Positions 1 to 44,468 of a stretch of 44,468 nucleotides of DNA are shown one piece after another. The stretch is taken from IMG/VR virus record IMGVR_UViG_3300008055_000147. The stretch is one strand, 5' to 3'. The notes below the pieces were generated by a model. The model did no database searches, was not told the DNA's origin, and worked only from the letters and a program-made list of their open reading frames with translations. Every line of letters starts with the position of its first letter. Positions within the stretch are counted from its first letter, which is position 1. Made by a program: the position numbers and the translations under genes. The DNA comes from a virus.

Positions 1-99
1 CCTCCTGCATCCTCTTCTCGTAGGCAAGCCAAGCCTTGATGCGCTCGGCCCGCTTGCTTACCGGTATCTCGGGCCCGTTGAAAAAGAGCTTGCTGTAGC
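1..99. repeat. 99-bp exact terminal duplication (copy 1; identical to 44370..44468)
   Basis: Bases 1-99 (cctcctgcatcc...gcttgctgtagc) recur base-for-base at 44370-44468. This indicates a circular-assembly overlap or a short direct terminal repeat. Confidence 0.95.
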
Positions 100-199
100 T
101 CTTGGGTTTTGGAGATGGCTTGGCGTTTATCTGGAAAATCCCGCCGAAAATGGCGATAAAGGGCCCGAGGATCTTGTTCATTACTGTGAACGTGGCCAT
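1..199 (-). CDS. small membrane protein (76 aa in total), 5' part; the ORF wraps the window ends and finishes at 44338
   Basis: ATG at 199. Translation MATFTVMNKILGPFIAIFGGIFQINAKPS... contains one hydrophobic helix. The frame continues from base 1 into 44369..44338 (TGA) once the duplicate is collapsed. TAATG stop/start coupling with the upstream ORF. Confidence 0.55.
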   Translation of the reverse strand, partial: MATFTVMNKILGPFIAIFGGIFQINAKPSPKPKSYSKLFFNGPEIPVSKRAERIKAWLAYEKRMQE

Positions 200-366
200 T
201 ACTTCTCCTGTGTGGGTTGATTGAACAATGGCCCCAGCACCCCTCCATCAAGGGCTAGGCGCCCTTGTTCTGGTGGTGCAAGCTCTTGAGCCTTGGGGCT
301 GTAGCTGCGGGCCTCAGCCCCTGGTAGGGCTAAGGCGTCCTGGTGGTAGCGGTGTGGTTTGGTCAT
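199..366 (-). CDS. hypothetical 55-aa protein (below the ORF-track size cutoff)
   Basis: ATG at 366 lies 3 nt after the stop of the 370..765 gene. The TAA at 201..199 overlaps the next ATG (TAATG). Translation MTKPHRYHQDALALPGAEARSYSPKAQELAPPEQGRLALDGGVLGPLFNQPTQEK. Supported only by the tight coupling. Confidence 0.35.
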   Translation of the reverse strand: MTKPHRYHQDALALPGAEARSYSPKAQELAPPEQGRLALDGGVLGPLFNQPTQEK

Positions 367-369
367 GGT

Positions 370-765
370 TCAGCAGACACAATCGGCGCTAGCCCGTGAC
401 AGGGCGGCCATCAGCTGCTGGGCAGCGTCCAGCGTCCACAGCTTGGCGCTGAGGATTGGTGTTGCTCTGCCCTCGACATAGGCCACCAGAATCCAGCCCT
501 CGCTGGAACCAGGACGCACACCTAAGCGCAGCAGGGGACCGGTATGGGCTGGCACTTGATGGCCCCAGCCTTCCGCATAGTCGAGCCAGTAGATCTCATT
601 GCCGTTGATGGCCAGGCCGTGCTCAGTCCTGAGGTTGAACTGCACCCAGGTGTCTATGGCGTCGATGATCTGGCGGACGGTGACGCAGTGTTTCTCATCC
701 GTTGGGATGGTGTGGAGCTGGTGCGTGTAGTCGCAGCGGTACGAGCCGTAGATGGTTGCGGTCAT
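370..765 (-). CDS. hypothetical early protein (131 aa)
   Basis: ORF with an ATG start, preceded by the ACCCACGACC box (775-784) and a structured intergenic element. No family recognised. Confidence 0.6.
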   Translation of the reverse strand: MTATIYGSYRCDYTHQLHTIPTDEKHCVTVRQIIDAIDTWVQFNLRTEHGLAINGNEIYWLDYAEGWGHQVPAHTGPLLRLGVRPGSSEGWILVAYVEGRATPILSAKLWTLDAAQQLMAALSRASADCVC

Positions 766-832
766 GGGTCTTGAGGTCGTGGGTTGTGCTGGTTGAACCC
801 AGCAGGGAACCCCTAAGGGCTCCGGGCTGAGA
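766..832 (-). repeat. structured intergenic element, copy E1 (two hairpins plus the ACCCACGACC box)
   Basis: Minus sense: TGA-TCTCAGCCC-GGAGCCC-TTAG-GGGTTCC-C-TGCTGG-GTTCAA-CCAGCA-CAACCCACGACCTCAAGACCC-ATG. The same architecture occurs at 1354-1431, 2017-2091 and 2248-2317. Confidence 0.75.
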
Positions 833-1129
833 TCAGACGTAAGGCGCCAGGTCGTAGTGATCGACCATCCCTACGGGTGAGACAGGGCAGCCGGCATTAA
901 GCCCGGCTTTGTAGGGGCGGACCGCTACTAGATGGCCGGGCCATTCCTTGCGGTCTTCCCGTGCCCATTGGTGGGCCTGGCTCCTCCACCAGCGAGCCGT
1001 ACCAGGGCTGGCTGATTCGTCCCCCTCGTAGGGCAGTGGCGTTATTTGGTACAGCTCCCAGGGCAGCCAGTGCTCACCGTCGTCAGCAGGGCAGGCCATC
1101 CATAGGGCTGTGCAGTTGGGTTGGGTCAT
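833..1129 (-). CDS. hypothetical early protein (98 aa, Trp-rich)
   Basis: ORF with TAATG coupling to the upstream gene. No family recognised. Confidence 0.55.
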   Translation of the reverse strand: MTQPNCTALWMACPADDGEHWLPWELYQITPLPYEGDESASPGTARWWRSQAHQWAREDRKEWPGHLVAVRPYKAGLNAGCPVSPVGMVDHYDLAPYV

Positions 1130-1353
1130 TAGATCAGCCCCCCCTTCAAGAAAGCCATCCGCCCGACTTCTGCGGTGTGAGTGCCGTTGAGGTTGCGGGA
1201 CAGGGCGCCTGTCAGCCGGTGGTAAGCCTGGCTTAATTCGCTGCGGGTGTCGGGCAGCATCTGAGCCACCTTCCCTGAGTCGAGCAGCTTCAGTGCAGCC
1301 AGGATGGCTACGGCCTGGGGCTCGGATAAGACGTACTCCGTGCGTGTGTTCAT
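1129..1353 (-). CDS. hypothetical early protein (74 aa)
   Basis: ATG start preceded by ACCCACGACC (1361-1370). No family recognised. Confidence 0.55.
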   Translation of the reverse strand: MNTRTEYVLSEPQAVAILAALKLLDSGKVAQMLPDTRSELSQAYHRLTGALSRNLNGTHTAEVGRMAFLKGGLI

Positions 1354-1431
1354 TGGATTAGGTCGTGGGTACTGCCTAAGGGCAGCAGGGAAGGGAGCAG
1401 GGCTCCCCTCCGGGCTGTCGTTAGGCGATGG
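1354..1431 (-). repeat. structured intergenic element, copy E4
   Basis: Minus sense: CAGCCC-GGAGGGGAGC-CCT-GCTCCCTTCC-CTGCTGCC-CTTA-GGCAG-TACCCACGACC. A 10-bp stem with different bases but the same layout as E1. Confidence 0.7.
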
Positions 1432-2016
1432 TCAGCAGCTGCGGAAGATGTGAACCCCTCCGGTGCTGCAGTCCTCCTCCCGGTAGCCGTCAAAGGTGAG
1501 GTCACGCCAAGCCCTCTCCCAGTCGATGCAGCTGGTTGGCCAGTTGCTGTAAAGGTCTCGGGTCTCGGTGATCTCCTCAGCCAGCTCCTGGGCGTAGTCC
1601 TCGCCGCTGCTGTAGCAACCGCAATAGGTTTCCCTGAAGCTGTCCTCGTCCAGGGTCTGGCCCTGGTTCTCACACTCCAACTGGTAAGCCTCTCGGGTGT
1701 CCTCGTCTGAGTAGTTGCTCAGACCATCAACCCAGGCCACTAGCTCACCTAGGGCAGGCCACTCGGTCTGAGACAGGTAGCCGGGCAGTCCTGAACTGGT
1801 GTGGACGGCGTACTCCTCAGCCCCTGGCTCTGGGCTGTGGGACAGCATCCAGTCAATGCCCTCTTGGATGCCCTCCTCGTCTATGTCGCCTTCCAGGTCG
1901 ATCCAGTCACCGTGCAACTTGCCGTTGTTGTAGGCGGCAAGGCAGGCGACATAGATCCCCACCTCTGGGCAGCCGGTAGCAATGCAGGCCGGCTTGGTCG
2001 TTGTTGTCGTTGTCAT
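1432..2016 (-). CDS. ardA: ArdA-like antirestriction protein (DNA mimic)
   Basis: 194 aa and very acidic. N-terminal IYVACLAAYNNGKLHGDWIDL and C-terminal ...CIDWERAWRDLTFDGY... match the characteristic ArdA pattern. Lies in the first-transcribed part of the early operon. Confidence 0.8.
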   Translation of the reverse strand: MTTTTTTKPACIATGCPEVGIYVACLAAYNNGKLHGDWIDLEGDIDEEGIQEGIDWMLSHSPEPGAEEYAVHTSSGLPGYLSQTEWPALGELVAWVDGLSNYSDEDTREAYQLECENQGQTLDEDSFRETYCGCYSSGEDYAQELAEEITETRDLYSNWPTSCIDWERAWRDLTFDGYREEDCSTGGVHIFRSC

Positions 2017-2091
2017 GGTCTGAATCCCTTGGTCGTGGGTTTGGTTGCTGGGTGAACCCAGCAGAGGACCCCGTAGGGCCCTGGGCTGAGA
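2017..2091 (-). repeat. structured intergenic element, copy E2
   Basis: Minus sense: TGA-TCTCAGCCC-AGGGCCC-TACG-GGGTCCT-C-TGCTGGG-TTCA-CCCAGCA-ACCAAACCCACGACC. Stem positions covary with E1. Confidence 0.75.
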
Positions 2092-2247
2092 TCAGCGCAG
2101 CATCAGCAGCAAAGACAAGACGCCGGCCAGTGCAATCAACACCTTTTGCCGTTCTTGTAGCTGCTCGATCTGCTGCGCCTGCCAATCGGTCAGCTCAACG
2201 GCTGCCGTGATGATTTGGTCCTTGGTGCTGCTAGCGGTCGTGTTCAT
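2092..2247 (-). CDS. small tail-anchored membrane protein (51 aa)
   Basis: The internal ATG at 2247 is preceded by the ACCCACGACC box (2255-2264). Translation MNTTASSTKDQ...KVLIALAGVLSLLLMLR has a C-terminal hydrophobic helix. The longer track ORF (to 2337) overlaps the upstream gene and element. Confidence 0.5.
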   Translation of the reverse strand: MNTTASSTKDQIITAAVELTDWQAQQIEQLQERQKVLIALAGVLSLLLMLR

Positions 2248-2317
2248 GGCTTGAGGTCGTGGGTTGTGCTGGTTGAACCCAGCAGGGAGCCGGTAAGGCT
2301 CCGGGCTGAGATCTGAT
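2248..2317 (-). repeat. structured intergenic element, copy E3
   Basis: Minus sense: CAGCCC-GGAGCC-TTACC-GGCTCC-C-TGCTGG-GTTCAA-CCAGCA-CAACCCACGACCTCAAGCC-ATG. Confidence 0.75.
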
Positions 2318-2515
2318 TCAGTAGCCCAACCAAGCAAGCAACGCCTCGGCGTTGCGCTCGTCTAGGTGGCACCAGCTCACCCCGTGGCTGTCCTCGTAAA
2401 GGTCAGACAGGGTGAAGCCGTGCTGCCCCAGCAACGCCTGGGCGTCGCCGTGGCTGAGGTTGCCTGCCTCGTCGGCATGGTCAAGCACTGAATCCTCGAA
2501 GGTGAGGTAGTCCAT
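2318..2515 (-). CDS. small acidic protein (65 aa), first gene of the leftward early operon
   Basis: ATG at 2515 (MDYLTFEDSVLDHADEAGNLSHGD...), D/E-rich. Preceded by the variant box ACCACGACC (2532-2540). The 218-aa track ORF upstream of this ATG is low-complexity G/R/P sequence in a GC-rich non-coding region. Confidence 0.55.
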   Translation of the reverse strand: MDYLTFEDSVLDHADEAGNLSHGDAQALLGQHGFTLSDLYEDSHGVSWCHLDERNAEALLAWLGY

Positions 2516-2531
2516 CAGGTTGTCTAGGTGC

Positions 2532-2540
2532 GGTCGTGGT
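2532..2540 (-). promoter_or_regulatory. variant early-gene box (ACCACGACC)
   Basis: One-base variant of the ACCCACGACC box, 16 nt upstream of the ATG at 2515. Confidence 0.4.
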
Positions 2541-3060
2541 AGCTGGCTTGCGCCTGCTTGCATCCACCCTAGTCGATTCTCTGCACCCCTGCAAGGAAGT
2601 CGGGGCAATTGCCTCCTTCGCCCTCCCTCGCCCCTGCCCTGCCTGCTGGGTGTTGCTGCCCTGGGCCTGCTGGCAAAGCTTGGGCGCATTGGGTAACAGT
2701 GGGCGCGGACGTAGGCGGACGCCTGCCCAAGCCCCGGCGGGCTCACCCGCCTGGCCTCCCTGCCCGGCTGACCCCCGTCTCCCCGCCGCCCCAGACCTGG
2801 GCAGCAGGCAGGCCAGCGGATCTCAGATCCGATGCGGCCCAGCGGTGGCAACCCCTCTCCCTCCCGGCTTGCTTCGGTGCTTGCCCTGGTGGCCGGCAGG
2901 CCCCAGCAGCCGCAGCCGAGGGGGTACGGGGGGACCGGGGCGCCTGGCGATAAATACAGGCCCCTTTGCCACACGCACCATTTCCAGCTCTCTACGAGGC
3001 ACCTACCCCAGTTGTGTTTGGGTTGTGGCGGGAGTTTTCGGGTAAAGGTCTTGGGTTTTT
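2541..3060. promoter_or_regulatory. GC-rich divergent intergenic control region (no credible CDS)
   Basis: Separates the leftward early operon from the rightward block. Four of six frames stay open only because stop codons are scarce, and the translations are G/R/P/A low complexity. Contains C-tract arrays (2621-2639, 2758-2792, 2852-2865) and G-tracts (2919-2940). Confidence 0.6.
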
Positions 3061-3087
3061 GGGGGCAGAAGCTTTACAGGGCTGTAT

Positions 3088-3528
3088 ATGATTTATCTGT
3101 CTTCTGTCCAGAAGCCTTTGGCCGTTTTACTGGTGGGATCCTGCCCTGCGATGAGGGAAGCATTGTCCTTAGGGGGTGCTTGTGGGCAGGTTTATGGAGT
3201 GATGTGGGAAGCGGCTTGGTACGACCAGAGGGGGGAGTGTGGGGGGACGACTGAGTTGAGCCATAAAGCGATTGGGGATCTGTGTCACCTGGGCAATGCG
3301 ACGGTGTTGAAGGCGATTGATGCGTTGTTGGATGACGGGATGATCCAGTGTTTGCATTTGGTGCCGAGTGGGAGGGGGAGTTGGAAAAGGAGGTATCGGG
3401 TCATCCATCCAGGCCGACTGGAGGCGCAGCGCAAGGCGATTGCTGTGATGGGTCCTGCGTTGTTGCCATCGGAGAGGGCGAAGCACTTGTTGCCGGTCTG
3501 GTCTGATGTGGAACCTCTTGTAGCCTGA
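3088..3528 (+). CDS. winged-helix DNA-binding protein
   Basis: HTH-like LSHKAIGDLCHLGNATVLKAIDALLDDGMI followed by a wing-like GRGSWKRRYRVI. The start is uncertain (the ATG at 3151 is also possible). Codon usage is atypical (TTG/GGG/GCG-rich). Confidence 0.55.
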   Translation: MIYLSSVQKPLAVLLVGSCPAMREALSLGGACGQVYGVMWEAAWYDQRGECGGTTELSHKAIGDLCHLGNATVLKAIDALLDDGMIQCLHLVPSGRGSWKRRYRVIHPGRLEAQRKAIAVMGPALLPSERAKHLLPVWSDVEPLVA

Positions 3529-3562
3529 CCTCATCACGACCGATATGACCGCCAATTCGCTT

Positions 3563-3572
3563 GGTCGTGGGT
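3563..3572 (-). promoter_or_regulatory. ACCCACGACC box, isolated copy facing the antisense of the wHTH gene
   Basis: Exact 10-mer on the minus strand, 35 nt past the stop of the 3088..3528 gene. Confidence 0.5.
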
Positions 3573-3579
3573 CGGAAGG

Positions 3580-3840
3580 GTGTGTCGCCGTGATCCTGGG
3601 ACCCCTTGTCTTTATGGCAGGGGGTTTCTTGATGCCGGTAGCCTGGGCTTACACCCATGGAGAGCTGCTGTGTACCTGGACAACGTTGTTGCCTTGGCCT
3701 TGGGTCTAGAGGGGACAATTGACCCTTCGCAGGAAGTTGTTGCTGCTGCTGTGGAAGCAACGGGCTACACCGGGTATGTCGCCCCTGACTTTGTGGCTGC
3801 AGCACCCAAGCCAGCTGCTGCTCCTAAAGCAAAACGCTGA
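3580..3840 (+). CDS. hypothetical protein (start uncertain; GTG at 3580 or 3670)
   Basis: No in-frame ATG. The stop overlaps the next ATG (TGATG), which suggests translational coupling. Ala/Pro/Lys-rich C-terminus. Confidence 0.4.
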   Translation: MCRRDPGTPCLYGRGFLDAGSLGLHPWRAAVYLDNVVALALGLEGTIDPSQEVVAAAVEATGYTGYVAPDFVAAAPKPAAAPKAKR

Positions 3841-4145
3841 TGGCAGTCATGACGCGAGAGGACTTTGAGTGTCTGTGTGAGCAGGCGGGATATGGCATTG
3901 GCTATTGGGCTGATGCCGCCCACCTGGAGCCGGACTGCTACACGGTGATGGATACAGAGGAGGGGAAGCTTGAGATCCCGCGTGTTCGTGTCGAGCAGGT
4001 CTTGACCCAGCTGGAAGCTGGTCAACACAACCTGAGGGCAGACCTAAGGAAAGCAGCAATCAGTGGTGATGCCGGGGAATGGGACAGCGAGGTGGCTGAT
4101 GTGTTGATTCAGCTGGCGGCATTTGGTGAAGTGGTCTACAGCTGA
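3840..4145 (+). CDS. hypothetical protein (101 aa)
   Basis: ATG start with TGATG coupling on both sides. No family recognised. Confidence 0.6.
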   Translation: MAVMTREDFECLCEQAGYGIGYWADAAHLEPDCYTVMDTEEGKLEIPRVRVEQVLTQLEAGQHNLRADLRKAAISGDAGEWDSEVADVLIQLAAFGEVVYS

Positions 4146-5908
4146 TGCAACACCTCTGGGAGCCGTTACCAGAACCGCTGCATGACTTTGCCAATTTCTG
4201 CTGCTACCTCCTTAGGGAGCAGGGATTGGCTGATAGTCCAACCAAGCAGCAGGTAGCAGTTGCCCAGTGGATGCAGCACGGGCCAAGGAAGTCCCTAACC
4301 ATTGCCTACCGGGGGCTGGGGAAGTCGCTGTTGGCCAGCTACTACGCCTTATGGCGGTTGCGGTTGGACCCCAACGAGAAGTTGCTGATCGTCTCAGCTA
4401 CAGCCATCAAGGCAACGGACTTCACGCAGTTCATGCTGCGGACCATGGGGGAGGTGGACATCCTTCAGTGTCTCCTGCCTGGTCCTGCCAATCGTTTCTC
4501 CAACATTGCCTTTGATGTCGCTCCAGCCACGGTGGAGCAAAGCCCATCAGTGCGGGCCCTGGGGGTGCAAGCACAGACCACTGGTCAGCGTTGTACCTGC
4601 GCGATCCTGGATGACGTTGAGGTCCTCTCCAACACCATCACCCAGCTGAAGCAAGAGCGGGTGGCTCATGCAGTGGAGGAGATCGAGTCGATCATCAAGC
4701 CAGATGAAGGGCAGCTGCTGCCAAGGAAGGTGCTGTACCTAGGCACACCCCACACAGAAGCGTCTATTTACCTACGACTGGTTCGGGAAAGGGGGTATTC
4801 CAGTCGGTATTGGCCTGCTCTGTACCCCGAGGAACTGGACCCCTACGAGGGGAACCTATGCGGGCGGATTGAAGCTGAGGTGACAGCTGATCCGGGGCTG
4901 GTTGGAGAGCCCACTGACCCTGAACGGTTCAGCCATGAAGACCTGCTGCAGCGGCAGGCATCCATGACCAAGAGCACTTTCCAGCTGCAGTTCATGTTGA
5001 ACTGCCGGTTGGCCACCTTGGATCGCTACCCCATCCGCCTGGGGGACCTGATGGTGATGGATATTGACGCATCTGCCCTGCCAGAGACGGTGGTGTGGTC
5101 GTCGTCTCCTGAGTGCCGGCTGCAGGAGCTGGTTTGCGTTGGGATGGGCGCTGATCGCTTTTACCACCGCCCCATTTTTGTCAACGGCTGGATTTCCAAG
5201 AGTGAACACTGGCGCTGTGTCTTAGCTGTTGACCCTGCTGGTCGGGGTTCAGACGAGCTGGCTTGGGCTGTCGTCGCTGAATTGAACGGCAACTTCTTCC
5301 TTTTGGAGTCCGGTGGCAGCACCCTGGGCTATGCCGATGAGGTGCTGCAGTTCCTGGCCAAATTGGCCAAGAAGTGGGATGTGAACTACGTCATCAACGA
5401 ATCCAACATGGGCGATGGCATGTTTACAGCCCTGTTGAAGCCCCATTTGATGCGGGAACACGCCGTCACGATTGAGGAGGTGCGTCACAACATCAGAAAA
5501 GAGACCCGGCTGTGCGACACCTTGGGCCCGATCATTCAGCAACACCGCCTGGTGGTCACCACCAAGGTGATCAAGCAGGACTACCGGATGCAGGATGACG
5601 ACCCGGAGAACGGTTACAGCCGGTCTTTGTTCTTTCAGGCCAGTCGTCTTACCCCCGAGAGGGGGTGTTTGAGCCACGATGACCGTCTTGATGCGTTGGC
5701 CATCGCCTGTGCGTTCTTTGTCGAGTCCGCCGCCCAGGATCAGCGTGTTGCCAAGCAATCACGGGCCGATCAGCTCCAACAGGAGTCCTATGAAGCGTGG
5801 CTGGATGAAACTGGTGCTGCAGTGGATGCGTTAGCCCTCGGGTGGCGGCCAAGGGCTAGCACCGGCAGAGCCCATGGGGGTGTCACCCGGCTGCGGGTGG
5901 GCGCTTGA
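4145..5908 (+). CDS. terL: terminase large subunit (T7 gp19-like)
   Basis: 587 aa. Walker A-like AYRGLGKS near residue 55, as in T7-type TerL, and an acidic nuclease half at the C-terminus. Size and context fit. Confidence 0.85.
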   Translation: MQHLWEPLPEPLHDFANFCCYLLREQGLADSPTKQQVAVAQWMQHGPRKSLTIAYRGLGKSLLASYYALWRLRLDPNEKLLIVSATAIKATDFTQFMLRTMGEVDILQCLLPGPANRFSNIAFDVAPATVEQSPSVRALGVQAQTTGQRCTCAILDDVEVLSNTITQLKQERVAHAVEEIESIIKPDEGQLLPRKVLYLGTPHTEASIYLRLVRERGYSSRYWPALYPEELDPYEGNLCGRIEAEVTADPGLVGEPTDPERFSHEDLLQRQASMTKSTFQLQFMLNCRLATLDRYPIRLGDLMVMDIDASALPETVVWSSSPECRLQELVCVGMGADRFYHRPIFVNGWISKSEHWRCVLAVDPAGRGSDELAWAVVAELNGNFFLLESGGSTLGYADEVLQFLAKLAKKWDVNYVINESNMGDGMFTALLKPHLMREHAVTIEEVRHNIRKETRLCDTLGPIIQQHRLVVTTKVIKQDYRMQDDDPENGYSRSLFFQASRLTPERGCLSHDDRLDALAIACAFFVESAAQDQRVAKQSRADQLQQESYEAWLDETGAAVDALALGWRPRASTGRAHGGVTRLRVGA

Positions 5909-6122
5909 AGTCCACAACCTTGCCTTGCATCGACTCGAAGTTGAGTTTTCCTGCCAATTTGGCCAGAGTGCTGCCTTCTTGAGCAACGGCAGTGACGTTG
6001 TTCTGCTTCAGGAGGGCCAGCGCCTCAGACCTGGCCTTGCGATCACCGTTTTGCAGGTCTTCTAGGACCTGTTCAACCAGGGCTTCGTGCATCTGCCCGA
6101 GCATGTCTTGAAGGTCTGCCAT
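5883..6122 (-). CDS. terS: terminase small subunit-like protein (T7 gp18-like), inverted
   Basis: 79 aa from the ATG at 6122. ...MLGQMHEALVEQVLEDLQNGDRKARSEALALLKQNN...LAKLAGKL parallels T7 gp18 ...MLDTAMAQRMLADLSDHERRSPQLYNAIFKLLDRH...LGGLAGAL (T7 sequence recalled from memory). The 3' end overlaps the TerL 3' end by 26 nt. Confidence 0.5.
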   Translation of the reverse strand: MADLQDMLGQMHEALVEQVLEDLQNGDRKARSEALALLKQNNVTAVAQEGSTLAKLAGKLNFESMQGKVVDFKRPPAAG

Positions 6123-6138
6123 GACTACGGGGGTGGAG
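6123..6138 (-). promoter_or_regulatory. phage-RNAP-type promoter-like motif (CTCCACCCCCGTAGTC) abutting the terS ATG
   Basis: Minus-strand copy of the CHCCACCCC(C/T)GTA motif, directly before the only minus-strand gene in the late block. Confidence 0.45.
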
Positions 6139-6180
6139 GAGCTGTTCCCATTGTGGCTATGCCGGTAACCTGAAGCAGCG

Positions 6181-6196
6181 TTACACCCCTGTCGTG
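6181..6196 (+). promoter_or_regulatory. phage-RNAP-type promoter-like motif (TTACACCCCTGTCGTG)
   Basis: Plus-strand copy, back-to-back with 6123-6138. It ends in the GTG start of the 6194 ORF that heads the virion operon. Confidence 0.45.
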
Positions 6197-6385
6197 GTTC
6201 CCATTCCACCAATTAACGAGCGGTTGGTGGCGGTATTGGCCACCAAGTTCCCTGATCAGGCCCCAGATCTGGACTGTCCTGATCGCGAGGTGTGGTTTAA
6301 GGCCGGGCAGGTGTCAGTGGTGCGCTGGCTTGCTTCCAAGTTGGAAGAACAGGAGAACGTTCCTTTTGATTCGGAGGGCCTCTGA
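6194..6385 (+). CDS. hypothetical protein (63 aa, GTG start)
   Basis: ORF coupled by TGATG to the next gene. No family recognised. Confidence 0.45.
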   Translation: MVPIPPINERLVAVLATKFPDQAPDLDCPDREVWFKAGQVSVVRWLASKLEEQENVPFDSEGL

Positions 6386-6774
6386 TGTGTAGCGGTGGCG
6401 GTGGGGCGGCAACAATCACGCAGCCGGATTACAGCGCATACAACAAGCAGTTCGATCTGCAGAAATCGGCCATTGACCAGGCCATGAACAGTGGCGCACA
6501 GCTGATGCAACAGCAGCTGAATCAGTCCATGACTGCCAAGCAGCAGGCATTGAGTGCGTCTGTTGAGCAGAGGAAGGTGCTGGCCGAGAACACCAACGCT
6601 CAAGCCATGCGGATGGCGGCTTTGATTGGCACACCGCCCCCCGAGAAGTCAGCAGCAGCGCCTGAAGTGGGCAGCGCCAGGGGAATTGAGACCAAAAAAG
6701 GCAAGTCGGCACTACGCATCGGGCTGGATTCCACCAGTCGGATGAGTCAGGGCGCTGGCCTCAACATCACCTAG
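6385..6774 (+). CDS. small virion protein, gp6.7/gp7.3-like paralogue 1
   Basis: N-terminus MCSGGGG, a Q-rich middle, and C-terminus KKGKSALRIG...GAGLNIT. Compare the T7 gp6.7 N-terminus MCFSPK and the gp7.3 C-terminus KKSLSVARSSGGGINI. Lies upstream of the portal gene as in T7. Confidence 0.6.
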   Translation: MCSGGGGAATITQPDYSAYNKQFDLQKSAIDQAMNSGAQLMQQQLNQSMTAKQQALSASVEQRKVLAENTNAQAMRMAALIGTPPPEKSAAAPEVGSARGIETKKGKSALRIGLDSTSRMSQGAGLNIT

Positions 6775-6784
6775 GAGAACGACC

Positions 6785-7183
6785 ATGTGTTTTGGCGGAA
6801 GCCCTCAGGCCCCACAAATCGTCTACCAGGGCCCCAGTCAGGCGGACTTGGACGCTGGCCAGGCATCGCTGGATCTTTACAAGCAGCAGATGACTGACCA
6901 GCAGTCCACTTTCAAGACCCAGCTGCAGGCCCAGATTGACAAAGCCAACAAGGACACAACTGAGCTGCAGTCGAAGTTGTCGTCTGAGTCAGCTGCTGCC
7001 TCTGCTGCCTCTGCTGCTCAGCAGACCGGCGCTTATGCAGCCACTGCAACCCAGACGGACGCACCGGTCAATGCTGCAACAACTGCTGCAGTGATGAAGA
7101 AGGAGAAGCCCAAGAACAACTTGAAGATTGCCTCAGCCGCCACTCCGGCATCTGCTGGCACTGGCCTCAATATCGGAGTCTGA
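6785..7183 (+). CDS. small virion protein, gp6.7/gp7.3-like paralogue 2
   Basis: N-terminus MCFGGSPQ, a Q/A-rich middle, and C-terminus KNNLKIASAATPASAGTGLNIGV. Confidence 0.6.
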   Translation: MCFGGSPQAPQIVYQGPSQADLDAGQASLDLYKQQMTDQQSTFKTQLQAQIDKANKDTTELQSKLSSESAAASAASAAQQTGAYAATATQTDAPVNAATTAAVMKKEKPKNNLKIASAATPASAGTGLNIGV

Positions 7184-7185
7184 CC

Positions 7186-7737
7186 ATGTGCGGTGGTGGT
7201 GGTGGTGGTTCCGTTCCAATCGAGAACCAAAGCGATGAGGACCTTGCCTCGTATCAGGCACCTGTAGGCCAGCTGGCTGGATACGACGAAGAAGGCAACC
7301 CGATCTACGAATACGGCGAGAACTACGGCAGTGAAGTGGAGCAGTACAACTCAGCCCAGGCTGAGATTGACCGCAGGCAACAGCTCAGGGACCAGTTAGC
7401 CGCACAAGCTACTGAGCGGGAAAACGTTCTCCAGATCCAGCGGGACCAGGCCGTTGAGATGGAGCAACAGCAGACGGCAATCGTCACCAAGCAGCAGGAG
7501 CAGGCCGCGCAACTGCAGACCCAGCAAGCCGAGCGCGTGACTGGCATCCGCGCTGCGGGCAACGCCGTCACCCAGTCCCTTCAGATTCTTGGCCGCCAGG
7601 GCGGGAAGCAGGCGCCAACTGCTGCAACCACTGCCCCGGCAGGCAAGAAGGCCGTGTCCCGTATGGCCCCAAGTTCAGGACTGCGGATCGGCTCCACCCA
7701 GGCCGGTTCTGGCGCTGGCGCAAACGTCGCTATCTAG
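7186..7737 (+). CDS. small virion protein, gp6.7/gp7.3-like paralogue 3
   Basis: N-terminus MCGGGGGG, a Q/E-rich coiled-coil-like middle, and C-terminus SSGLRIGSTQAGSGAGANVAI. Confidence 0.6.
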   Translation: MCGGGGGGSVPIENQSDEDLASYQAPVGQLAGYDEEGNPIYEYGENYGSEVEQYNSAQAEIDRRQQLRDQLAAQATERENVLQIQRDQAVEMEQQQTAIVTKQQEQAAQLQTQQAERVTGIRAAGNAVTQSLQILGRQGGKQAPTAATTAPAGKKAVSRMAPSSGLRIGSTQAGSGAGANVAI

Positions 7738-7739
7738 TC

Positions 7740-9365
7740 ATGCCAACTGCTCAACAGCGATATAGCTCCCTTGAAGGGGACCGCAACTACTACCTGGAAC
7801 GGGCCCGGACGGCCTCCAGGCTGACAATTCCCTACCTGATCCCCCAGGGGAATGAGCCAACGGCTGGCACCAGGGAGTCGTACCCCGTGCCATGGAACGG
7901 CATCGGCGCCAGGGGCGTGTTGAACCTGGCCAGCCGCATGTTGCTTGCCCTGCTTCCACCCACCCAGCAGTTCTTCCGCTTTTCGCTGGACGAGGCGGCC
8001 CTGGCACAGCAGGGGGTGGGCCTGGAACAGAAGTCTGAGTTTGAGCTGGCCCTCAGCAAGATCGAGCGCGAAGTCCTGAAAGCGATTGAAACCAGCAATG
8101 ACCGGGTGGTGTTCCATGAAGCCCTCCTCCATTTATTGGTCTCAGGCAATGCCCTCCTCTATATCGGCACCGAGGGGCTGCGGGTATTTCACCTGAACCG
8201 CTACGTCTGCTCCAGGGACCCCATGGGCAACCCTTTGGATGCGGTCGTCTGCGAGGAGCTGCCCATCTACAAGCTGCCCAAGAAGGTGCAGGACATTGTT
8301 AAAGGCGATGAGCCAGATGCCCTGAAAGGAATCCTGGACGACCAGGACCCCGTTGCAGGCAAGGCCCAGGAGAAGACCGTCAAGCTTTACACCTACATCG
8401 AGTGGGGTGAAAAGACGGTTTGCTGGCACCAGGAAGTCCGGGGTCAGAAGATCCCAGGCACTGAAGGCAAAGCACCGCTGGACATCAGCCCCTGGCTGGC
8501 ACTGCGCATGACCCGCGTAGACGGGCAGCCCTATGGCATTGGCTATGTCGAGTCAGCAGCACTGGCTGACCTGCAGACCGCTGAGGTCTTGTCTCAAGCC
8601 GTAGCCGAAGGCGCTCTGGCATCCGCCAAGGTGTTGTTTTTGGTCAAGCCCTCTGGGGTTACCAAGGCTGCCGACCTGGCTCGCGCCCCCAATGGCTCAT
8701 TCGTCACGGGTGACCCCAATGACGTACTGGCCCTACAGGTGCAGAAGTCTCAGGACCTGTCGGTTGCCATGCAAGGCAAGCAACAGATCGAGGCCCGGCT
8801 TAGTCAAGCCTTCATGCTTGCCGATGTGCGGGACTCTGAGCGCACAACGGCTGAAGAAGTACGGCTGCAGGCGCTGCAAATTGAGAACAGCCTGGGTTCC
8901 ATCTACTCAATCCTGACGACTGAGTTTCAGGTCCCCTACGTCTCCCGCAAGCTCGACATCCTGACCCGTGCAGGCAAGGTGCCCAAGCTGCCTAAGGATC
9001 TGGTAAAGCCAGTCATGACAGTGGGTCTGGCTGCGGTAGGCCGTGGCAACGACCTGGAGCAATTGGTCAGATTCACCACCACCCTGGGCCAAACCATGGG
9101 CCCTGAGTCGCTATCCACCTACATCAAGCCCAGCGAGCTGATCAAACGATTGGCCTACTCGATGGGCATTGATGTCCTTGGCCTGGTAAAGACCGAGGAA
9201 GAGCTGGCTGCTGAAGCTCAACAGCAACAGCAGATGGCTCAACAGCAACAGCTGATGGCATCACCGATGGGTGATCCGCAGAAGCTGGCAACTGCGGCGG
9301 CCACCGTGCAGGAAATGCAGCAGCCCGGACTTGCACAACAGTCAGCCGAGGAGGTGACGTCATGA
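7740..9365 (+). CDS. portal (head-tail connector) protein, T7 gp8-like
   Basis: 541 aa. Sits directly upstream of the scaffold and capsid genes, with a Q-rich acidic C-terminal tail. Called by size and synteny. Confidence 0.8.
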   Translation: MPTAQQRYSSLEGDRNYYLERARTASRLTIPYLIPQGNEPTAGTRESYPVPWNGIGARGVLNLASRMLLALLPPTQQFFRFSLDEAALAQQGVGLEQKSEFELALSKIEREVLKAIETSNDRVVFHEALLHLLVSGNALLYIGTEGLRVFHLNRYVCSRDPMGNPLDAVVCEELPIYKLPKKVQDIVKGDEPDALKGILDDQDPVAGKAQEKTVKLYTYIEWGEKTVCWHQEVRGQKIPGTEGKAPLDISPWLALRMTRVDGQPYGIGYVESAALADLQTAEVLSQAVAEGALASAKVLFLVKPSGVTKAADLARAPNGSFVTGDPNDVLALQVQKSQDLSVAMQGKQQIEARLSQAFMLADVRDSERTTAEEVRLQALQIENSLGSIYSILTTEFQVPYVSRKLDILTRAGKVPKLPKDLVKPVMTVGLAAVGRGNDLEQLVRFTTTLGQTMGPESLSTYIKPSELIKRLAYSMGIDVLGLVKTEEELAAEAQQQQQMAQQQQLMASPMGDPQKLATAAATVQEMQQPGLAQQSAEEVTS

Positions 9366-9892: not shown

Positions 9893-10734
9893 CCACGACC
9901 CCACAGCTGACCACGCCTGAGGGCATCGAAGGGATGGTGGCCCCTGGCCAGGAGAACATCCTGGAGGAGTTCGTCAAAGAGCAGGAGACGCAGGAGCCTG
10001 AACTGCTACTAGGCAAGTTCAGGTCGCAGGACGACCTGGCCAAGGCATACCAGGAGCTGGAGAAGAAGCTGGGTCAGCCCAAAGAGCAGGCGGCTAATAC
10101 CGCCGAGCCAGAAGCGCCGGCCACGCCGCAGGAGTACAGCCGGGAGACCTCAATTGACGACTACGGCGAAGCCCTGTCCGACAAGTTTGAAGAAGCCCAG
10201 CTCAACCCCTACGAGATGGCTGCCGCCTGGGAGCGGGGTGACGACATTTCCAGCTACGTCGAGAAGCTCACCGGCACCGGCATCCCCAGGCAAGTGATTG
10301 AGCAGTACCTGGCCAGGGCCGAGGCCCAGGGCTCAACCCCTGCAGAAGCCCCAGGACTGACTGAATCAGACGCCGCTGAACTCAAGGCCATGGTCGGCGG
10401 GGACGCTGCCTTTAGCAAGTTGAGTCAGTGGGCTGCCAGCAACCTGGAGCAAGGCGAACTGGCCAAATACAACGCCGTGGTGGACAGCGGCAACAAAGAC
10501 GCCATCGAGTGGGCGCTGAAGGCCCTGCAGGCGCGGGTAGCCGCACCTGACTCCGTAGTGGAGCCAAAGCTCTACGGGGGTGGTGAAGCCGCAGCTGAGA
10601 CCAAGTTTGAAAGCCAGCAACAGGTTTTGGACGCAATGAACAAGCGGAATGGTCGCGGCCAGCGCATGTATGACGTTGATGAGGCTTATCGGGACAAGGT
10701 TCAGAGGTTGTTGGCAGTTAGCGATGTGTTCTAG
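9889..10734 (+). CDS. scaffolding protein (T7 gp9-like)
   Basis: 281 aa, highly acidic and A/E/Q-rich, between portal and capsid. Confidence 0.7.
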   Translation: MTTTPQLTTPEGIEGMVAPGQENILEEFVKEQETQEPELLLGKFRSQDDLAKAYQELEKKLGQPKEQAANTAEPEAPATPQEYSRETSIDDYGEALSDKFEEAQLNPYEMAAAWERGDDISSYVEKLTGTGIPRQVIEQYLARAEAQGSTPAEAPGLTESDAAELKAMVGGDAAFSKLSQWAASNLEQGELAKYNAVVDSGNKDAIEWALKALQARVAAPDSVVEPKLYGGGEAAAETKFESQQQVLDAMNKRNGRGQRMYDVDEAYRDKVQRLLAVSDVF

Positions 10735-10842
10735 TAGCGTTAATTCAGAACGCAACCGGATCGACAGGCCCTTTCAGGAGGACAACCTGTGGCGGTGAAG
10801 GAACAAGCGGGCTAAAAAACCACTTTTTCGTCACTACTAACA

Positions 10843-11943: not shown

Positions 11944-11976
11944 GGGGTCAGGCCGCGCACCTGGCCCCTTTTTTTT
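11944..11976 (+). terminator. rho-independent terminator after the capsid gene (analogue of T7 T-phi)
   Basis: GGGGTCAGG-ccgcgca-CCTGGCCCC (9-bp stem with one G-U pair) followed by TTTTTTTT. Confidence 0.8.
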
Positions 11977-12013
11977 GGCGCTCTACCATTAGTCCACAGC
12001 CGTGTAAGGGTCG

Positions 12014-12676
12014 ATGGGCCTACAGAACCAGTCAGCCACCCCAGGCAGGACCAACATCCTGGGGGCTGTCAACACCCTTTTGATGAACGTGGGCGAAATG
12101 CCCGTGGATTCGCTCAGCAACGTCCAGGTGCAGGACGCCAGGATTGCTGAAGCCACAATCCTGGAACTGCACAAGGAGGGGCAAACCAAGGGCTGGAGCT
12201 GGAACACCGAGCACGACTACCCCTTCCAGAAGGACACCGCCACCACCGAGATCGTGGTGCCAGCCAATGTGATGCGGTGGGTGCCAAACCCGTACAACTA
12301 CGCCAGGCGTTTTGAGCTGCGGGGGCAGAAGGTCTACGACCGTGACACCCGTTCCACCAAGTTTGACGACACCATCACCGAGATTCGGGCCGATGTGGTG
12401 TGGCTGCTGGATTGGGATTCCTGCCCTGAGCCCTACAACCGCTACGCGACCATGCGGGCCGCCAGGGTTTTTAGTGCCAGGACCCTGGGCAACGACTCCC
12501 TGGTGCGCTTTTCAGCAGCTGATGAGCAGGCAGCACTGACAGAGCTGCAGCGGATGGAGCTGGAAAACAACGAATACAACCTGCTGACTGGTGGTCGTGG
12601 CCTAAGCCCATTCCCGACTTACCAGCCTGGCTTTGGCCTGCTGCGGAACCTCCAGGGAGGCCGGGTCATTGGCTGA
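12014..12676 (+). CDS. tail tubular protein A (T7 gp11-like)
   Basis: LGAVNTLLMNVGEMPVDSL...GWSWN...VYDR... parallels T7 gp11 LSAVNDILASIGEPPVSTL...GWTFN...VYDR. Synteny fits. Confidence 0.85.
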   Translation: MGLQNQSATPGRTNILGAVNTLLMNVGEMPVDSLSNVQVQDARIAEATILELHKEGQTKGWSWNTEHDYPFQKDTATTEIVVPANVMRWVPNPYNYARRFELRGQKVYDRDTRSTKFDDTITEIRADVVWLLDWDSCPEPYNRYATMRAARVFSARTLGNDSLVRFSAADEQAALTELQRMELENNEYNLLTGGRGLSPFPTYQPGFGLLRNLQGGRVIG

Positions 12677-28215: not shown

Positions 28216-28266
28216 CCCATCACGGCCTCGGCGGGGCACAATAGGTCAACAGCCATGTAGTGGTCG

Positions 28267-32235: not shown

Positions 32236-33038
32236 GCCCTTTAACTGAACCGACCAGGCTTGTGTTGCGCAAAGGAATGGGCACTTGGGCCGAAGGCGGC
32301 GACAATGTTTATTACATCGACGTGGCCGGTGTTGCTTACCGTGTTCACGAATTTAAGGCCGTTGGCACCACGTCGCTAAATGTTGTGAGTGGGGGCACTT
32401 TTCAATACCTGATTGTTGCTGGCGGGGGTGGAGGTGGAACTGGCGGTTATACGGTTGGTGGAGCCGGAGGTGGAGCCGGAGGATTTTTAACAGGAACAAC
32501 TGCTCTAAGTATCGGAGTATTCACAGTCAATACTGGGGCTGGCGGGGCTGGATCGGATCTTGACGGAGCAGCCTCAAGTTTTGCCGGAATTACCGCAACT
32601 GGTGGCGGAGGTGCTGTTTCTTTTAGTGATGGTCGCAACGGTGGGTCTGGCGCTGGCGCTCCAGGCGAAAACAGAACCGCAGGAGTTGGCATAGCTGGTC
32701 AAGGCAATAATGGCGCAATCGGGCGAGGTCTTGTCGGCAATGTCTCCACTTCTGGTGGCGGTGGCGGTGGTGCCGGTGGGCCTGGTGTCAGACCGAACCC
32801 CGGCCCAAACAATCCGGGCCCCGGCGGCGTGGGCTTAGCTTCTTCTATTTCTGGAACTTCCGTCGTTTATGCAAGCGGTGGTCAAGGCTCTATTAACATT
32901 GTCTTTACTCCGACTAATGCGCCTGCCAATAGCGGGAATGGAGGAGGAGGAGGAGGAGGAGGAACTAGCACAACTCTTCCAGGCCAATTAGGCGCTGCTG
33001 GCGGCTCCGGCATCGTCATCGTGAGGTACGCAATATGA
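32232..33038 (+). CDS. glycine-rich domain protein (fibre-like)
   Basis: YLIVAGGGGGGTGG..GGAGGGAGG..GGGGGGAG..GGGGGGGG..GSGIVIVRY is the typical phage glycine-rich domain architecture. Confidence 0.65.
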   Translation: MSPLTEPTRLVLRKGMGTWAEGGDNVYYIDVAGVAYRVHEFKAVGTTSLNVVSGGTFQYLIVAGGGGGGTGGYTVGGAGGGAGGFLTGTTALSIGVFTVNTGAGGAGSDLDGAASSFAGITATGGGGAVSFSDGRNGGSGAGAPGENRTAGVGIAGQGNNGAIGRGLVGNVSTSGGGGGGAGGPGVRPNPGPNNPGPGGVGLASSISGTSVVYASGGQGSINIVFTPTNAPANSGNGGGGGGGGTSTTLPGQLGAAGGSGIVIVRYAI

Positions 33039-38820: not shown

Positions 38821-38829
38821 GGTCGTGGG
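38821..38829 (-). promoter_or_regulatory. early-gene box CCCACGACC, 2 nt before the SSB ATG
   Basis: Minus sense: CTACGACATTCCCACGACCAC-ATG. Confidence 0.5.
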
Positions 38830-38855
38830 AATGTCGTAGACCCAGCCAAGTTACC

Positions 38856-41217: not shown

Positions 41218-41303
41218 CTCCTTGAGTCGTCGCTGCTGGGTCAGGTGGGCCTGGCGGGAGCGGGCCTCGGCTTTCAGCTGGCTTGCAATCTGGCGGGCTT
41301 CAA

Positions 41304-41313
41304 GGTCGTGGGT
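41304..41313 (-). promoter_or_regulatory. ACCCACGACC box upstream of the RNAP ATG
   Basis: Exact 10-mer within the open frame upstream of the ATG at 41217. Confidence 0.5.
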
Positions 41314-41350
41314 AACTTGCAATTGCAAATCCTTTGCTTGCAATAGGCAA

Positions 41351-41376
41351 TTTATCTTCTCCACCCCTGTAGATCC
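41351..41376 (+). promoter_or_regulatory. phage-RNAP-type promoter-like motif (TTTATCTTCTCCACCCCTGTAGATCC), pointing toward integrase (antisense)
   Basis: Plus-strand copy in the RNAP upstream region, facing the minus-strand int and MarR-like genes. Confidence 0.45.
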
Positions 41377-41386
41377 AGGTGCAAGC

Positions 41387-41421
41387 AATAAAAAAGGGTG
41401 TTGGCGACTTGCTCAACACCC
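41387..41421 (-). terminator. rho-independent terminator after the integrase gene
   Basis: Minus sense: GGGTGTTG-agcaagtcgc-CAACACCC (8-bp stem) followed by TTTTTTATT. Lies 125 nt past the integrase stop and before the RNAP region. Confidence 0.75.
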
Positions 41422-41545
41422 CTGCAGGGACTCATTTTTGGGATTTTAAGTCCGCTGCGTATACCAATTTCGCCATGCCCCCCAATGGATCTCAGCTGCG
41501 CTTGTGTGCAAGTTGCAAGCAAGTGCAAGTCGGTCCGTGCAAATC

Positions 41546-42547: not shown

Positions 42548-42885
42548 TGGTCGTGGGTGGTGAGTTCAAGGGCCTGGAGGACCGTCTGCATAACGGCCTT
42601 GCCCTTGGCGTTCAAGCGGACGCGATGGCGCCTGCCTTCGTTTGGATCGCGGAAAATCTCGATCAGGTTGAGGGTCGACGCTCTCCGGTTGGAGGTATCG
42701 CTCAAGGCGCCGCAGATCCGGGAGACTGAGGCATTGCTGAGGTTGAACTCGGCCTCGATCTCCGCATAGGTGCAAGCACCCTTTTGGGCGATAAAGACCA
42801 GTGCCTGAGCGTGGTGGAGCGGAAGAGCTGAAGGGTCCAGCAAGTTGAAAATTGCCAGAGCCCTGGCCAGTCGATGTAAAGCCAT
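42502..42885 (-). CDS. MarR-like winged-helix regulator
   Basis: ATG at 42885. LHHAQALVFIAQKGACTYAEIEAEFNLSNASVSRICGALSD...RRHRVRLNAKGKAV is a MarR-type wHTH. Overlaps the integrase start by 46 nt. Confidence 0.65.
   Translation of the reverse strand: MALHRLARALAIFNLLDPSALPLHHAQALVFIAQKGACTYAEIEAEFNLSNASVSRICGALSDTSNRRASTLNLIEIFRDPNEGRRHRVRLNAKGKAVMQTVLQALELTTHDQWTQQAQSPGELLAG
42549..42558 (-). promoter_or_regulatory. ACCCACGACC box, 1 nt before the integrase ATG
   Basis: Minus sense: GAACTCACCACCCACGACCA-ATG. Lies inside the MarR-like coding sequence. Confidence 0.5.
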
Positions 42886-43430: not shown

Positions 43431-43440
43431 GGTCGTGGGT
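43431..43440 (-). promoter_or_regulatory. ACCCACGACC box
   Basis: Exact 10-mer, 17 nt before the ATG at 43413. Confidence 0.5.
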
Positions 43441-43503
43441 AGGGGCAGCCCCTCCCGGCATCTTAAAGAGACATCTACACGGGTGCAAGGTTGGGTTAGG
43501 CGT

Positions 43504-44238: not shown

Positions 44239-44299
44239 GGGGAAAGGCGCTGCTGCCTGAATTATTGCCGGCTTTTCCTTCTCTCCATGGTTGTTTAGT

Positions 44300-44337
44300 A
44301 AACCCAGCAGGGAACCCCTCAGGGCTCCGGGATGGGA
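44300..44337 (-). repeat. structured intergenic element, partial copy E5 (hairpin A only)
   Basis: Minus sense: TGA-TCCCATCCC-GGAGCCC-TGAG-GGGTTCC-CTGCTGGGTTT. Lacks hairpin B and the box. Confidence 0.6.
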
Positions 44338-44468
44338 TCACTGGAACTCGTCTGGGCTCCCTTTTGCCTCCTCCTGCATCCTCTTCTCGTAGGCAAGCCA
44401 AGCCTTGATGCGCTCGGCCCGCTTGCTTACCGGTATCTCGGGCCCGTTGAAAAAGAGCTTGCTGTAGC
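44338..44468 (-). CDS. small membrane protein, 3' part (continuation of the 1..199 ORF)
   Basis: C-terminal ...KRMQEEAKGSPDEFQ, with the stop TGA at 44340..44338. Bases 44370-44468 duplicate 1-99. Confidence 0.55.
   Translation of the reverse strand, partial: YSKLFFNGPEIPVSKRAERIKAWLAYEKRMQEEAKGSPDEFQ
44370..44468. repeat. 99-bp exact terminal duplication (copy 2)
   Basis: Identical to bases 1-99. Confidence 0.95.

Follow-up and report, generated by a model that had tools for sequence, protein, structure and literature searches.

A short box at early-gene starts of a temperate T7-like phage and its complement in a candidate antisense RNA

The c4 antisense RNA of phages P1 and P7 (ImmI) and the CI RNA of phage P4 are small structured phage RNAs which act as immunity factors beside protein repressors. 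Short exposed sequences in these RNAs pair before genes for lytic functions and block ribosome access or transcription. A comparable arrangement is predicted here for the virus record IMGVR_UViG_3300008055_000147 (IMG/VR; 44,468 nucleotides (nt), the whole stretch being referred to as the window). This phage is temperate and T7-like and carries a box of 8–10 nt at the starts of its early genes, together with a single copy in the oppositely transcribed arm whose RNA would read as the complement of the box (the anti-box). The c4 and P4 CI RNAs act on one operon through two sites within the same transcript family, whereas at least 8–9 separate start regions would be addressed here and the RNA would lie on the opposite arm next to the terminase gene, as an element of a 3′ untranslated region (UTR) or of a leader. 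The c4 RNA is mentioned in PMC8198154 and PMC5320573; neither it nor P4 CI shows homology of sequence or structure to the element described here. No precedent for such a box and antisense system was found in the literature, the genome paper of the related Synechococcus phage S-SRP02 mentions no promoter or motif, and nothing was found on regulation in the related genera Oinezvirus and Nohivirus.

Seed-type small RNAs, such as cyanobacterial Yfr1, enterobacterial RybB and those derived from 3′ UTRs, resemble the element in having a conserved seed of 8–13 nt by hairpins with a 3′ terminator, in having their targets in translation initiation regions and in that seed and targets are kept together. 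Unlike them, the regulator and all of its putative targets would lie in one 44-kb phage genome, and the targets share an exact box and not loose matches. Phage T4 shuts off many early genes post-transcriptionally via a short motif in the initiation region, as is predicted here. The T4 factors RegB (an endoribonuclease) and RegA (a repressor) are proteins whose motif is the Shine-Dalgarno (SD) sequence itself (GGAG) or a degenerate AU-rich site, whereas the candidate partner of the present box is an RNA.

The initial annotation had reported a strand-specific motif, GGTCGTGGG, immediately upstream of early-gene start codons, and an exact count bore this out. Nine copies lie on the plus strand (775, 1361, 2031, 2255, 3563, 38821, 41304, 42549 and 43431) and a single copy lies in the opposite orientation (minus strand, 29050), while dinucleotide shuffles gave a mean of 0.67 and a maximum of 3. 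The match extends to the 10-mer GGTCGTGGGT in eight of the nine copies, the exception being 38821, which ends in A, and the one-base variant at 2532 reads TACCACGACC in gene sense. Spacing to the start codon agreed with the first account as well; it is 9, 7, 14, 7, 16, 2, 1 and 17 nt, with 86 nt for the gene of the T7-type single-subunit RNA polymerase (RNAP) which this phage encodes. The conserved unit is the 8-mer CCACGACC (gene sense), present in 15 copies against 1.75 expected, and 11 of the 15 are in early-gene sense.

The early and replication genes of the window form a minus-strand arm (3045→1, then 44468→34295). The plus-strand arm (3088→about 34000) begins with a gene for a 146-amino-acid (aa) protein, followed by a small gene (GTG at 3670), the terminase gene and the structural genes. 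The only copy of the 10-mer in this oppositely transcribed arm is GGTCGTGGGT at 3563..3572 on the plus strand, the orphan. Plus-strand RNA reads GGUCGUGGGU at this point, the exact complement of the early-gene box, and the ArdA start region has 13 nt of complementarity to 3560–3572. This copy had been treated as an oddity that precedes no credible gene; it is the most informative copy. The statement holds in so far as the 128-aa minus-strand open reading frame (ORF) 7 nt after it looks non-coding, but it overlooks that the copy follows the plus-strand 146-aa gene (3088..3528); the anti-box would thus form part of the 3′ UTR of this gene's transcript. The possibility of a small early-sense ORF after the orphan was considered and rejected, such an ORF being found only in some genomes and looking like antisense junk. 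The 146-aa gene had been called a winged helix-turn-helix (wHTH) gene; no Pfam domain was found in its product, and a search of viral contigs gave no relatives of the protein.

We propose that the phage encodes an antisense RNA for which the box is the shared target and which would pair with the start regions of early mRNAs; we rate the chances of this proposal as about even. Of the three roles first suggested for the box, that of a target for a phage regulator of early genes is favoured, with the complementary RNA of 3529–3640 as the candidate regulator. RNA–RNA pairing gives the simplest explanation of every copy, the orphan included.

The candidate antisense RNA or 3′ UTR element was delimited as 3529..3640 on the plus strand, bounded by the 146-aa stop codon and the end of a second hairpin. 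Its minimum free energy is −54.1 kcal/mol (z = −3.4). Folding of the 123-nt flank of the orphan gave −55.4 in the plus sense and −34.8 in the opposite sense, and the 60-nt flank gave −28.3 kcal/mol in late sense versus −10.7 in the other. The late-sense advantage of the orphan hairpin was 6.5–17.6 kcal/mol at all orphans, related genomes included, against −8 to +8 at most start-region copies. The stem-loop that holds the anti-box, SL1, has two possible forms in the window, one with the inner stem UUCGC-UUGGUC-GUGGG (3556–3571) and one with a longer stem in which the anti-box is paired with a decoy, UCACGACCGA (3534–3543). Hairpin 2 (3598–3628) has 13 bp, four G.U pairs among them, and is followed by UUGAUG. 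No Rfam family, that of P1/P7 C4 included, matched at gathering score across the whole window, and only sub-threshold noise was returned at the orphan and at its counterpart in the relative L031. Comparison of the whole 112-nt element with all start regions by RNAduplex was discarded, having given meaningless long GC-rich duplexes.

Relatives were collected by searching viral contigs with the RNAP and terminase as anchors, which yielded about 100 loci (given L numbers below). The lineage includes the genera Oinezvirus and Nohivirus of the International Committee on Taxonomy of Viruses together with Synechococcus phage S-SRP02, which grows on Synechococcus SR-C1 and is the sole relative in culture, and recurs in many viral contigs derived from marine and freshwater metagenomes. 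Wherever a genome or contig spans this region and its box can be recognised, exactly one syntenic orphan was present near the terminase gene, antisense to the local genes. In the window and about 28 loci it lies between same-sense genes of the opposite arm, transcription of that strand being judged from gene orientation only. In 11 diverse relatives the anti-box forms the loop (UUGGUC) and the 3′ arm (GUGGU) of SL1. Across these 11 sequences 99.2% of the cells in the pairing were paired, against 26–66% with the partners slid, and in two pairs both partners had changed. Because several G.U pairs do not vary in any of the 11, SL1 is a structure of the late-sense RNA only. Stems followed by U tracts (UUUUGU or U8), with compensatory stem changes, form canonical terminators at this site in L002 and in most of the close relatives (L004, L007, L029, L031, L033, L037, L039, L042 and L050 among them); in L002 two terminator hairpins flank a single-stranded anti-box, and U8 follows the second of them.

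Two further loci without GGTCGTGG, L028 (~650–700) and L038 (~660–730), have another G/T-rich stretch (GGTCGTTCTG and GTTGTGAATGGTGG) before a canonical terminator at the syntenic site. These stretches may be further variants of the anti-box, the early arms of both phages lying outside the contigs.

The initial annotation had named conservation in related phages as a check on the box. All close relatives, whose GC content ranges from 37 to 61%, carry an excess of CCACGACC in early sense. The 8-mer is retained in phages with terminases ~75% identical and RNAPs ~50% identical. In 23 related loci 87 copies of the core were in early sense and 8 in the opposite sense. Of 76 unique copies, 56 (74%) had within the next 25 nt an ATG that starts an ORF of 40 codons or more, compared with 14.5% of random positions in the same regions, and the spacing from box to ATG ranged from 0 to 22 nt. 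At the first early gene of relatives the box lies in a hairpin loop, the stems of which vary in a compensatory manner, and the integrase genes often have tandem boxes abutting the ATG. L002 has an alternative box, CACGACAAC, in the same architecture, and the S-SRP02 clade has AACAACCACC(ACC)n. The number of ACC units after AACAACCACC varies within this clade (L003, L008, L013, L017) in the manner of a microsatellite, and the tract runs into coding sequence (ATGgccACCACCACCACC). In the more distant terminase relatives (L052–L105) the repeated strand-specific 9-mers were rejected as analogous boxes; they are repeats within large ORFs.

The orphan and the start-region boxes change together. Both correspond to ACCCACGACC in the window, L026 and L027, to A-CCACGACC-A in most relatives, to CCACGACCC in L006, to CACGACAAC in L002 and to AACAACCACC in the S-SRP02 clade. 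A concerted change of all copies would also fit a change in a single trans-acting factor, and the box could be the RNA or DNA site of a protein that regulates early genes, for example an NrdR/Ogr-like zinc ribbon or another small early protein, in the manner of RegA or RegB of T4. The location of the boxes in start regions, the tandem integrase boxes and the conservation of a 64-aa zinc-ribbon gene in both clades agree with such a protein. However, no RNA-binding domain was identified, an RNA-binding protein would see the orphan only if that site were transcribed in early sense, whereas the structure there is late-sense, and a protein that binds double-stranded DNA has no reason to prefer start regions or one orientation. 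We consider a protein of this kind improbable.

Antisense pairing, as proposed above, would operate as follows. Transcripts of the plus-strand arm would start in the divergent region near 3050, cross the 146-aa gene and reach the hairpin at 3598–3628, and would thus contain GGUCGUGGGU. The anti-box would be displayed in or next to a stem-loop with a terminator-type hairpin behind it. The late-sense RNA with GGUCGUGG(GU) would pair with the boxes, and might be the 3′ UTR of the first transcript of the plus arm, a read-through leader, or both. Between 10 and 13 perfect base pairs could form between the anti-box and ACCCACGACC of the early mRNAs, at 0–22 nt upstream of the starts of the genes for ArdA, integrase, SSB and the product in the position of MarR, and of five small genes, that is, in the landing zone of the ribosome. 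Such a duplex would block binding of the 30S subunit and would probably invite cleavage by RNases. With boxes at their start regions, the early cistrons would probably undergo coordinated repression of translation, and decay, and all those that are independently translated would be turned off together whenever the plus arm was transcribed. This could take place in the prophage state as a second layer of immunity, late in infection as a shut-off of early genes, or both.

If correct, one short RNA would coordinate the translation of anti-restriction, integration, regulatory and replication-start genes via a shared site of 8–10 nt, and the regulon would be compact, held wholly within the phage genome and kept from 37 to 61% GC. 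The box and anti-box would then make a portable pair for engineering, and a sequence signature for recognising early genes and the regulatory RNA when uncultured relatives are annotated. Temperate T7-like phages are a recently recognised group, and little is known of their controls of lysis–lysogeny and of timing.

Several points weigh against antisense pairing. The RNA, its ends and its promoter are all predicted from sequence. A stem of 10 bp with the decoy can lock up the anti-box, both in the window and in its closest relatives. Hairpin 2 of the window has a weak U tail and was not flagged by a terminator scan, while the hairpin that follows the anti-box in the S-SRP02 clade lacks a U tract and lies directly against the ATG of the terminase gene. 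The co-variation comes from about five lineages and represents few independent events. A copy of the core within the scaffold gene, described below, would put a late gene among the targets, and the RNAP-gene copy is 86 nt from its ATG. The orphan itself can be read as an extra early-sense copy which has by chance come to lie next to a terminator.

An extension of the proposal is that the pairing works in both directions and acts as a timer from early to late expression. The anti-box would then lie in a structured leader, immediately before the terminator ahead of the terminase and late genes; its place in the S-SRP02 clade is upstream of the 17–22 bp hairpin at the terminase ATG. Accumulating early mRNAs carrying the box would pair with the leader and relieve termination or unmask the terminase start, and the same duplexes would silence the early cistrons, making the abundance of early mRNA the signal for late expression. 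We regard this extension as distinctly unlikely.

The individual copies in the window are all on the minus strand unless stated. The first early gene, of 65 aa, has the variant TACCACGACC at 2532..2541, 16 nt before its ATG. It is followed by ACCCACGACC at 2255..2264 (7 nt before the ATG of a 51-aa gene), and by boxes at 2031..2040 (14 nt before the ATG of ArdA, Pfam PF07275), 1361..1370 (7 nt, 74-aa gene) and 775..784 (9 nt, 131-aa gene). Across the junction of the two ends of the window, the box at 43431..43440 lies 17 nt before the ATG of a 114-aa gene which is located upstream of the integrase gene and is MarR-like by position; a small hairpin (43441–43453) abuts it. The integrase gene (PF00589) has its box at 42549..42558, 1 nt before the ATG, and a 182-aa gene, SSB by annotation of its relatives, has TCCCACGACC at 38821..38830, 2 nt before the ATG. 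The same CCACGACCacATG occurs also in L001, L019 and L036.

It had been stated that the flanks of the box are not conserved, which is wrong for the copies at 775, 1361, 2031 and 2255. A common two-hairpin module precedes each of them, at 785–829, 1371–1417, 2041–2088 and 2265–2308 respectively. The module, CAGCCCGG-GGAGCCC..GGGGUUCC-CUGCUGG..CCAGCA, consists of two short stable hairpins directly behind the preceding stop codon. It is kept in relatives from 37% to 61% GC, the S-SRP02 clade included, and there its first hairpin often has a loop of the UUCG or UACG type. A copy without a box occurs at 44289..44331, upstream of an ATG at about 44288, and module and box are therefore separable; the boxes of the integrase and SSB genes have no hairpins. 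The module may be a 3′ stabiliser or a barrier.

The recurrent succession of a stop codon, a pair of stable hairpins (with UUCG or UACG loops in several cases), the box and the ATG would suit a site of RNA processing, or a 5′ end, within a polycistronic early transcript, the upstream hairpins acting as 3′ stabilisers in the manner of the RNase III sites of T7. The predicted single-strandedness of the box is a further point in favour. However, the hairpins have 6–7 bp (~11 bp if stacked) in place of the ~20 bp or more of a T7-type RNase III site, the box is not AU-rich as RNase E sites are, and neither the integrase and SSB boxes, which lack hairpins, nor the orphan would be explained. Processing as the function of the box thus appears very improbable, though as a downstream step, namely cleavage of the duplex, it is compatible with antisense pairing.

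The modules between small early ORFs recall the PeSL cassettes of T4-type phages, which are likewise repeated modules of a stem-loop plus a signal, situated at the borders of swapped cassettes. In PeSL the stem-loop is joined to a sigma-70 early promoter, whereas the conserved signal here is the box, and no sigma-70-like sites were found in window positions 1–4200. Exchange of cassettes is seen in L026, which is 97% identical to window 779–8038 over the terminase region and mosaic in the early arm, with early cassettes exchanged between hairpin-box modules. The plus-strand 146-aa gene has also been swapped out in L026, with the breakpoint at window position 3519, just 5′ of the anti-box stem-loop.

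Over 54 start regions the box was the least paired segment, with an unpaired probability of 0.71 versus 0.42 upstream and 0.54 downstream. High accessibility is expected of a target for an antisense RNA, but it would be expected too if the box were an SD-independent enhancer of translation, read by a component of the host such as ribosomal protein S1, another site in the ribosomal RNA (rRNA) or a host RNA. The box would then keep the start region unstructured and recruit ribosomes, and the orphan would be unrelated or a decoy. Most box genes of the window lack an SD, whereas the late genes have GGAGG; ArdA has the SD-like AAGGGA between box and ATG. The tract of the sister clade, AACAACCACC(ACC)n, is rich in CA, as are coding starts. 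Conservation over a wide range of GC would also fit a conserved host partner. In AT-rich relatives a true SD (AAGGAG) lies between box and ATG, 0–3 nt after the box, for example CCACGACCcaAAAGGAGatttaatcATG, so that the box is directly 5′ of the SD. The epsilon enhancer of T7 gene 10 has the same position relative to the SD.

Against an enhancer stands the comparison with 16S rRNA, which had been suggested as a check on complementarity. In five picocyanobacterial genes (Prochlorococcus, Synechococcus and Vulcanococcus, the host being assumed; 3′ end ..CACCUCCU) the longest exact complement to the box was 6–7 nt (GUCGUG or UGUCGUG, internal to the rRNA), which is at chance level. Exact 8–10-mers with lineage-specific variants are not expected of an effect of composition, a spacing of 0–22 nt is too loose for ribosome positioning (~5–10 nt for an SD), and the single syntenic, co-varying and structured orphan is left unexplained. 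The true SD of the AT-rich relatives, the loose spacing and the lack of a 16S complement likewise leave the earlier suggestion of a stand-alone non-SD translation-initiation element unsupported. A translation enhancer is therefore judged unlikely, though the box may still contribute positively to translation, given how few box genes of this GC-rich window have an SD.

A strand-specific motif upstream of genes, in a podophage that encodes its own RNAP, resembles the promoters of T7-type RNAPs (T7, SP6, Syn5 and LUZ100; PMC10134795). In the temperate T7-like phage LUZ100 the phage promoter motif has 17 bp, with one copy before the RNAP gene (PMC10134795), and the passage of that paper which cites the proposal has MarR sites flanking the phage promoter in temperate T7-like phages. 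The box could thus be a promoter, or the core of one, for the single-subunit RNAP, every early gene being served by a separate promoter that lies after the hairpins of the gene before it; the leftmost promoter, the orphan, would fire antisense through the 146-aa gene. Conserved strand-specific motifs upstream of genes are usually promoters in this phage family. Of the four bases that follow the box 72% are A/T, 8 of 10 copies have a purine as the fifth, and the RNAP-gene copy (41304..41313; RNAP ATG at 41217) is flanked by TTGCAA palindromes, among which it is embedded.

The distribution of the box argues against promoters of this kind. T7-type promoters span 15–23 bp and keep their initiation region, drive middle and late genes and leave an SD-containing leader, and the box differs: 8–10 nt are conserved and nothing is kept at −4 to +3. 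No copy precedes any late gene of the ~30-kb late arm, the sole late-sense copy near a start being inside the scaffold ORF, and there is none in the 11.7 kb of late genes of L031. Seven of the nine copies lie upstream of the RNAP gene, and the RNAP-gene copy is missing in relatives. The ATG of the integrase and SSB genes comes 0–2 nt after the box, and in AT-rich relatives the SD comes 0–3 nt after it; initiation at least 5 nt downstream of the box would remove those ATGs and SDs. If ACGAC is placed on T7 positions −13 to −9, or the box on −12 to −5, transcription of the integrase and SSB genes would begin within or past their ATG, and this geometry was rejected. Finally, the covariation of SL1 implies selection on the complementary strand at the orphan. 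A promoter for the phage RNAP has, in our view, only a small chance of being the function of the box. The element TTCAGAACGCAACC upstream of the capsid gene was examined as the true phage promoter; no convincing second copy was found and no late promoter was identified.

The scaffold gene bears on the level at which the signal is read. The claim that no late gene has the box is correct for the regions upstream of late genes, but the start of the scaffold gene, ATGACCACGACC (MTTTP), holds the core at 9893..9900 on the plus strand, in codons 2–4 and in late-gene sense. Its Thr codons match the box of the lineage, reading ACC ACG ACC in window-like genomes, ACC ACG ACA in L002 and ACC ACC ACC in the S-SRP02 clade; the exception is L028, where ACC ACC ACA mismatches the apparent anti-box. 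In window-like genomes this copy is on the other DNA strand and in the sense of its own gene, which argues for a signal in RNA and not in a DNA strand. A Chi-like motif or primase site was also considered, GGTCGTGG containing TGGTC and the sister motif GGTGGTGG, and was rejected because such a site has no reason to lie at start codons and because the scaffold copy follows gene sense. Rho utilisation (rut) sites and antitermination sites of the nut or put type were rejected as well, such sites occurring once per operon and not before each cistron, and cyanobacteria not being known to have Rho.

As regards the phage itself, the two ends of the window (1–99 and 44370–44468) are an identical direct repeat of 99 nt. 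Given this terminal overlap, the window is a circular assembly of ~44,369 bp, across the junction of which the early arm runs. Its GC content is 58.8%. The minus arm encodes ArdA, a C39-like peptidase, integrase, RNAP, a RusA-like protein, an NrdR/Ogr-like zinc ribbon and a primase-helicase. The RNAP is ~50% identical to those of the uncultured Mediterranean phages AP013546 (Oinezvirus) and AP013547 (Nohivirus) and 37% identical to that of S-SRP02. Between the arms lies ~550 nt of GC-rich non-coding DNA (2542–3087) with many long imperfect inverted repeats, 86% conserved in L026, which may hold promoters, operators or additional RNAs. Palindromes of the TTGCAA type (CTTGCAATTGCAAAT, ATTGCAAGC) are clustered at 41270–41550, between the integrase and RNAP genes, and similar TTGCAT..TGCAA sites are found in the divergent region of the AT-rich relative L031 (8650–8880). 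These palindromes are probably operators of MarR-like or wHTH regulators, or integrase arm sites.

A few features of the late arm were also recorded. The starts of the tail tube A and fibre genes (11991–12016 and 28244–28269) share CAGCCRTGTARKGGTCGATG, with GGTCG directly before the ATG, and in L001 and L002 the tail tube A gene is preceded by sequences similar to CAGCCRTGTARKGGTCGATG. The same two loci share with the window a conserved hairpin, its loop reading AGGAGGA, ~55 nt ahead of the capsid gene (about 10760–10795). Just behind the capsid gene (about 11945–11985) there is a strong hairpin and T8 terminator, present also in L001–L003, which is like the T-phi terminator of T7. The 12-mer CCAAGCAGCAGG has four plus-strand copies inside late ORFs (4242, 6536, 7487 and 20220), and a (GGA)n run is located at about 32940 (32940–32965).

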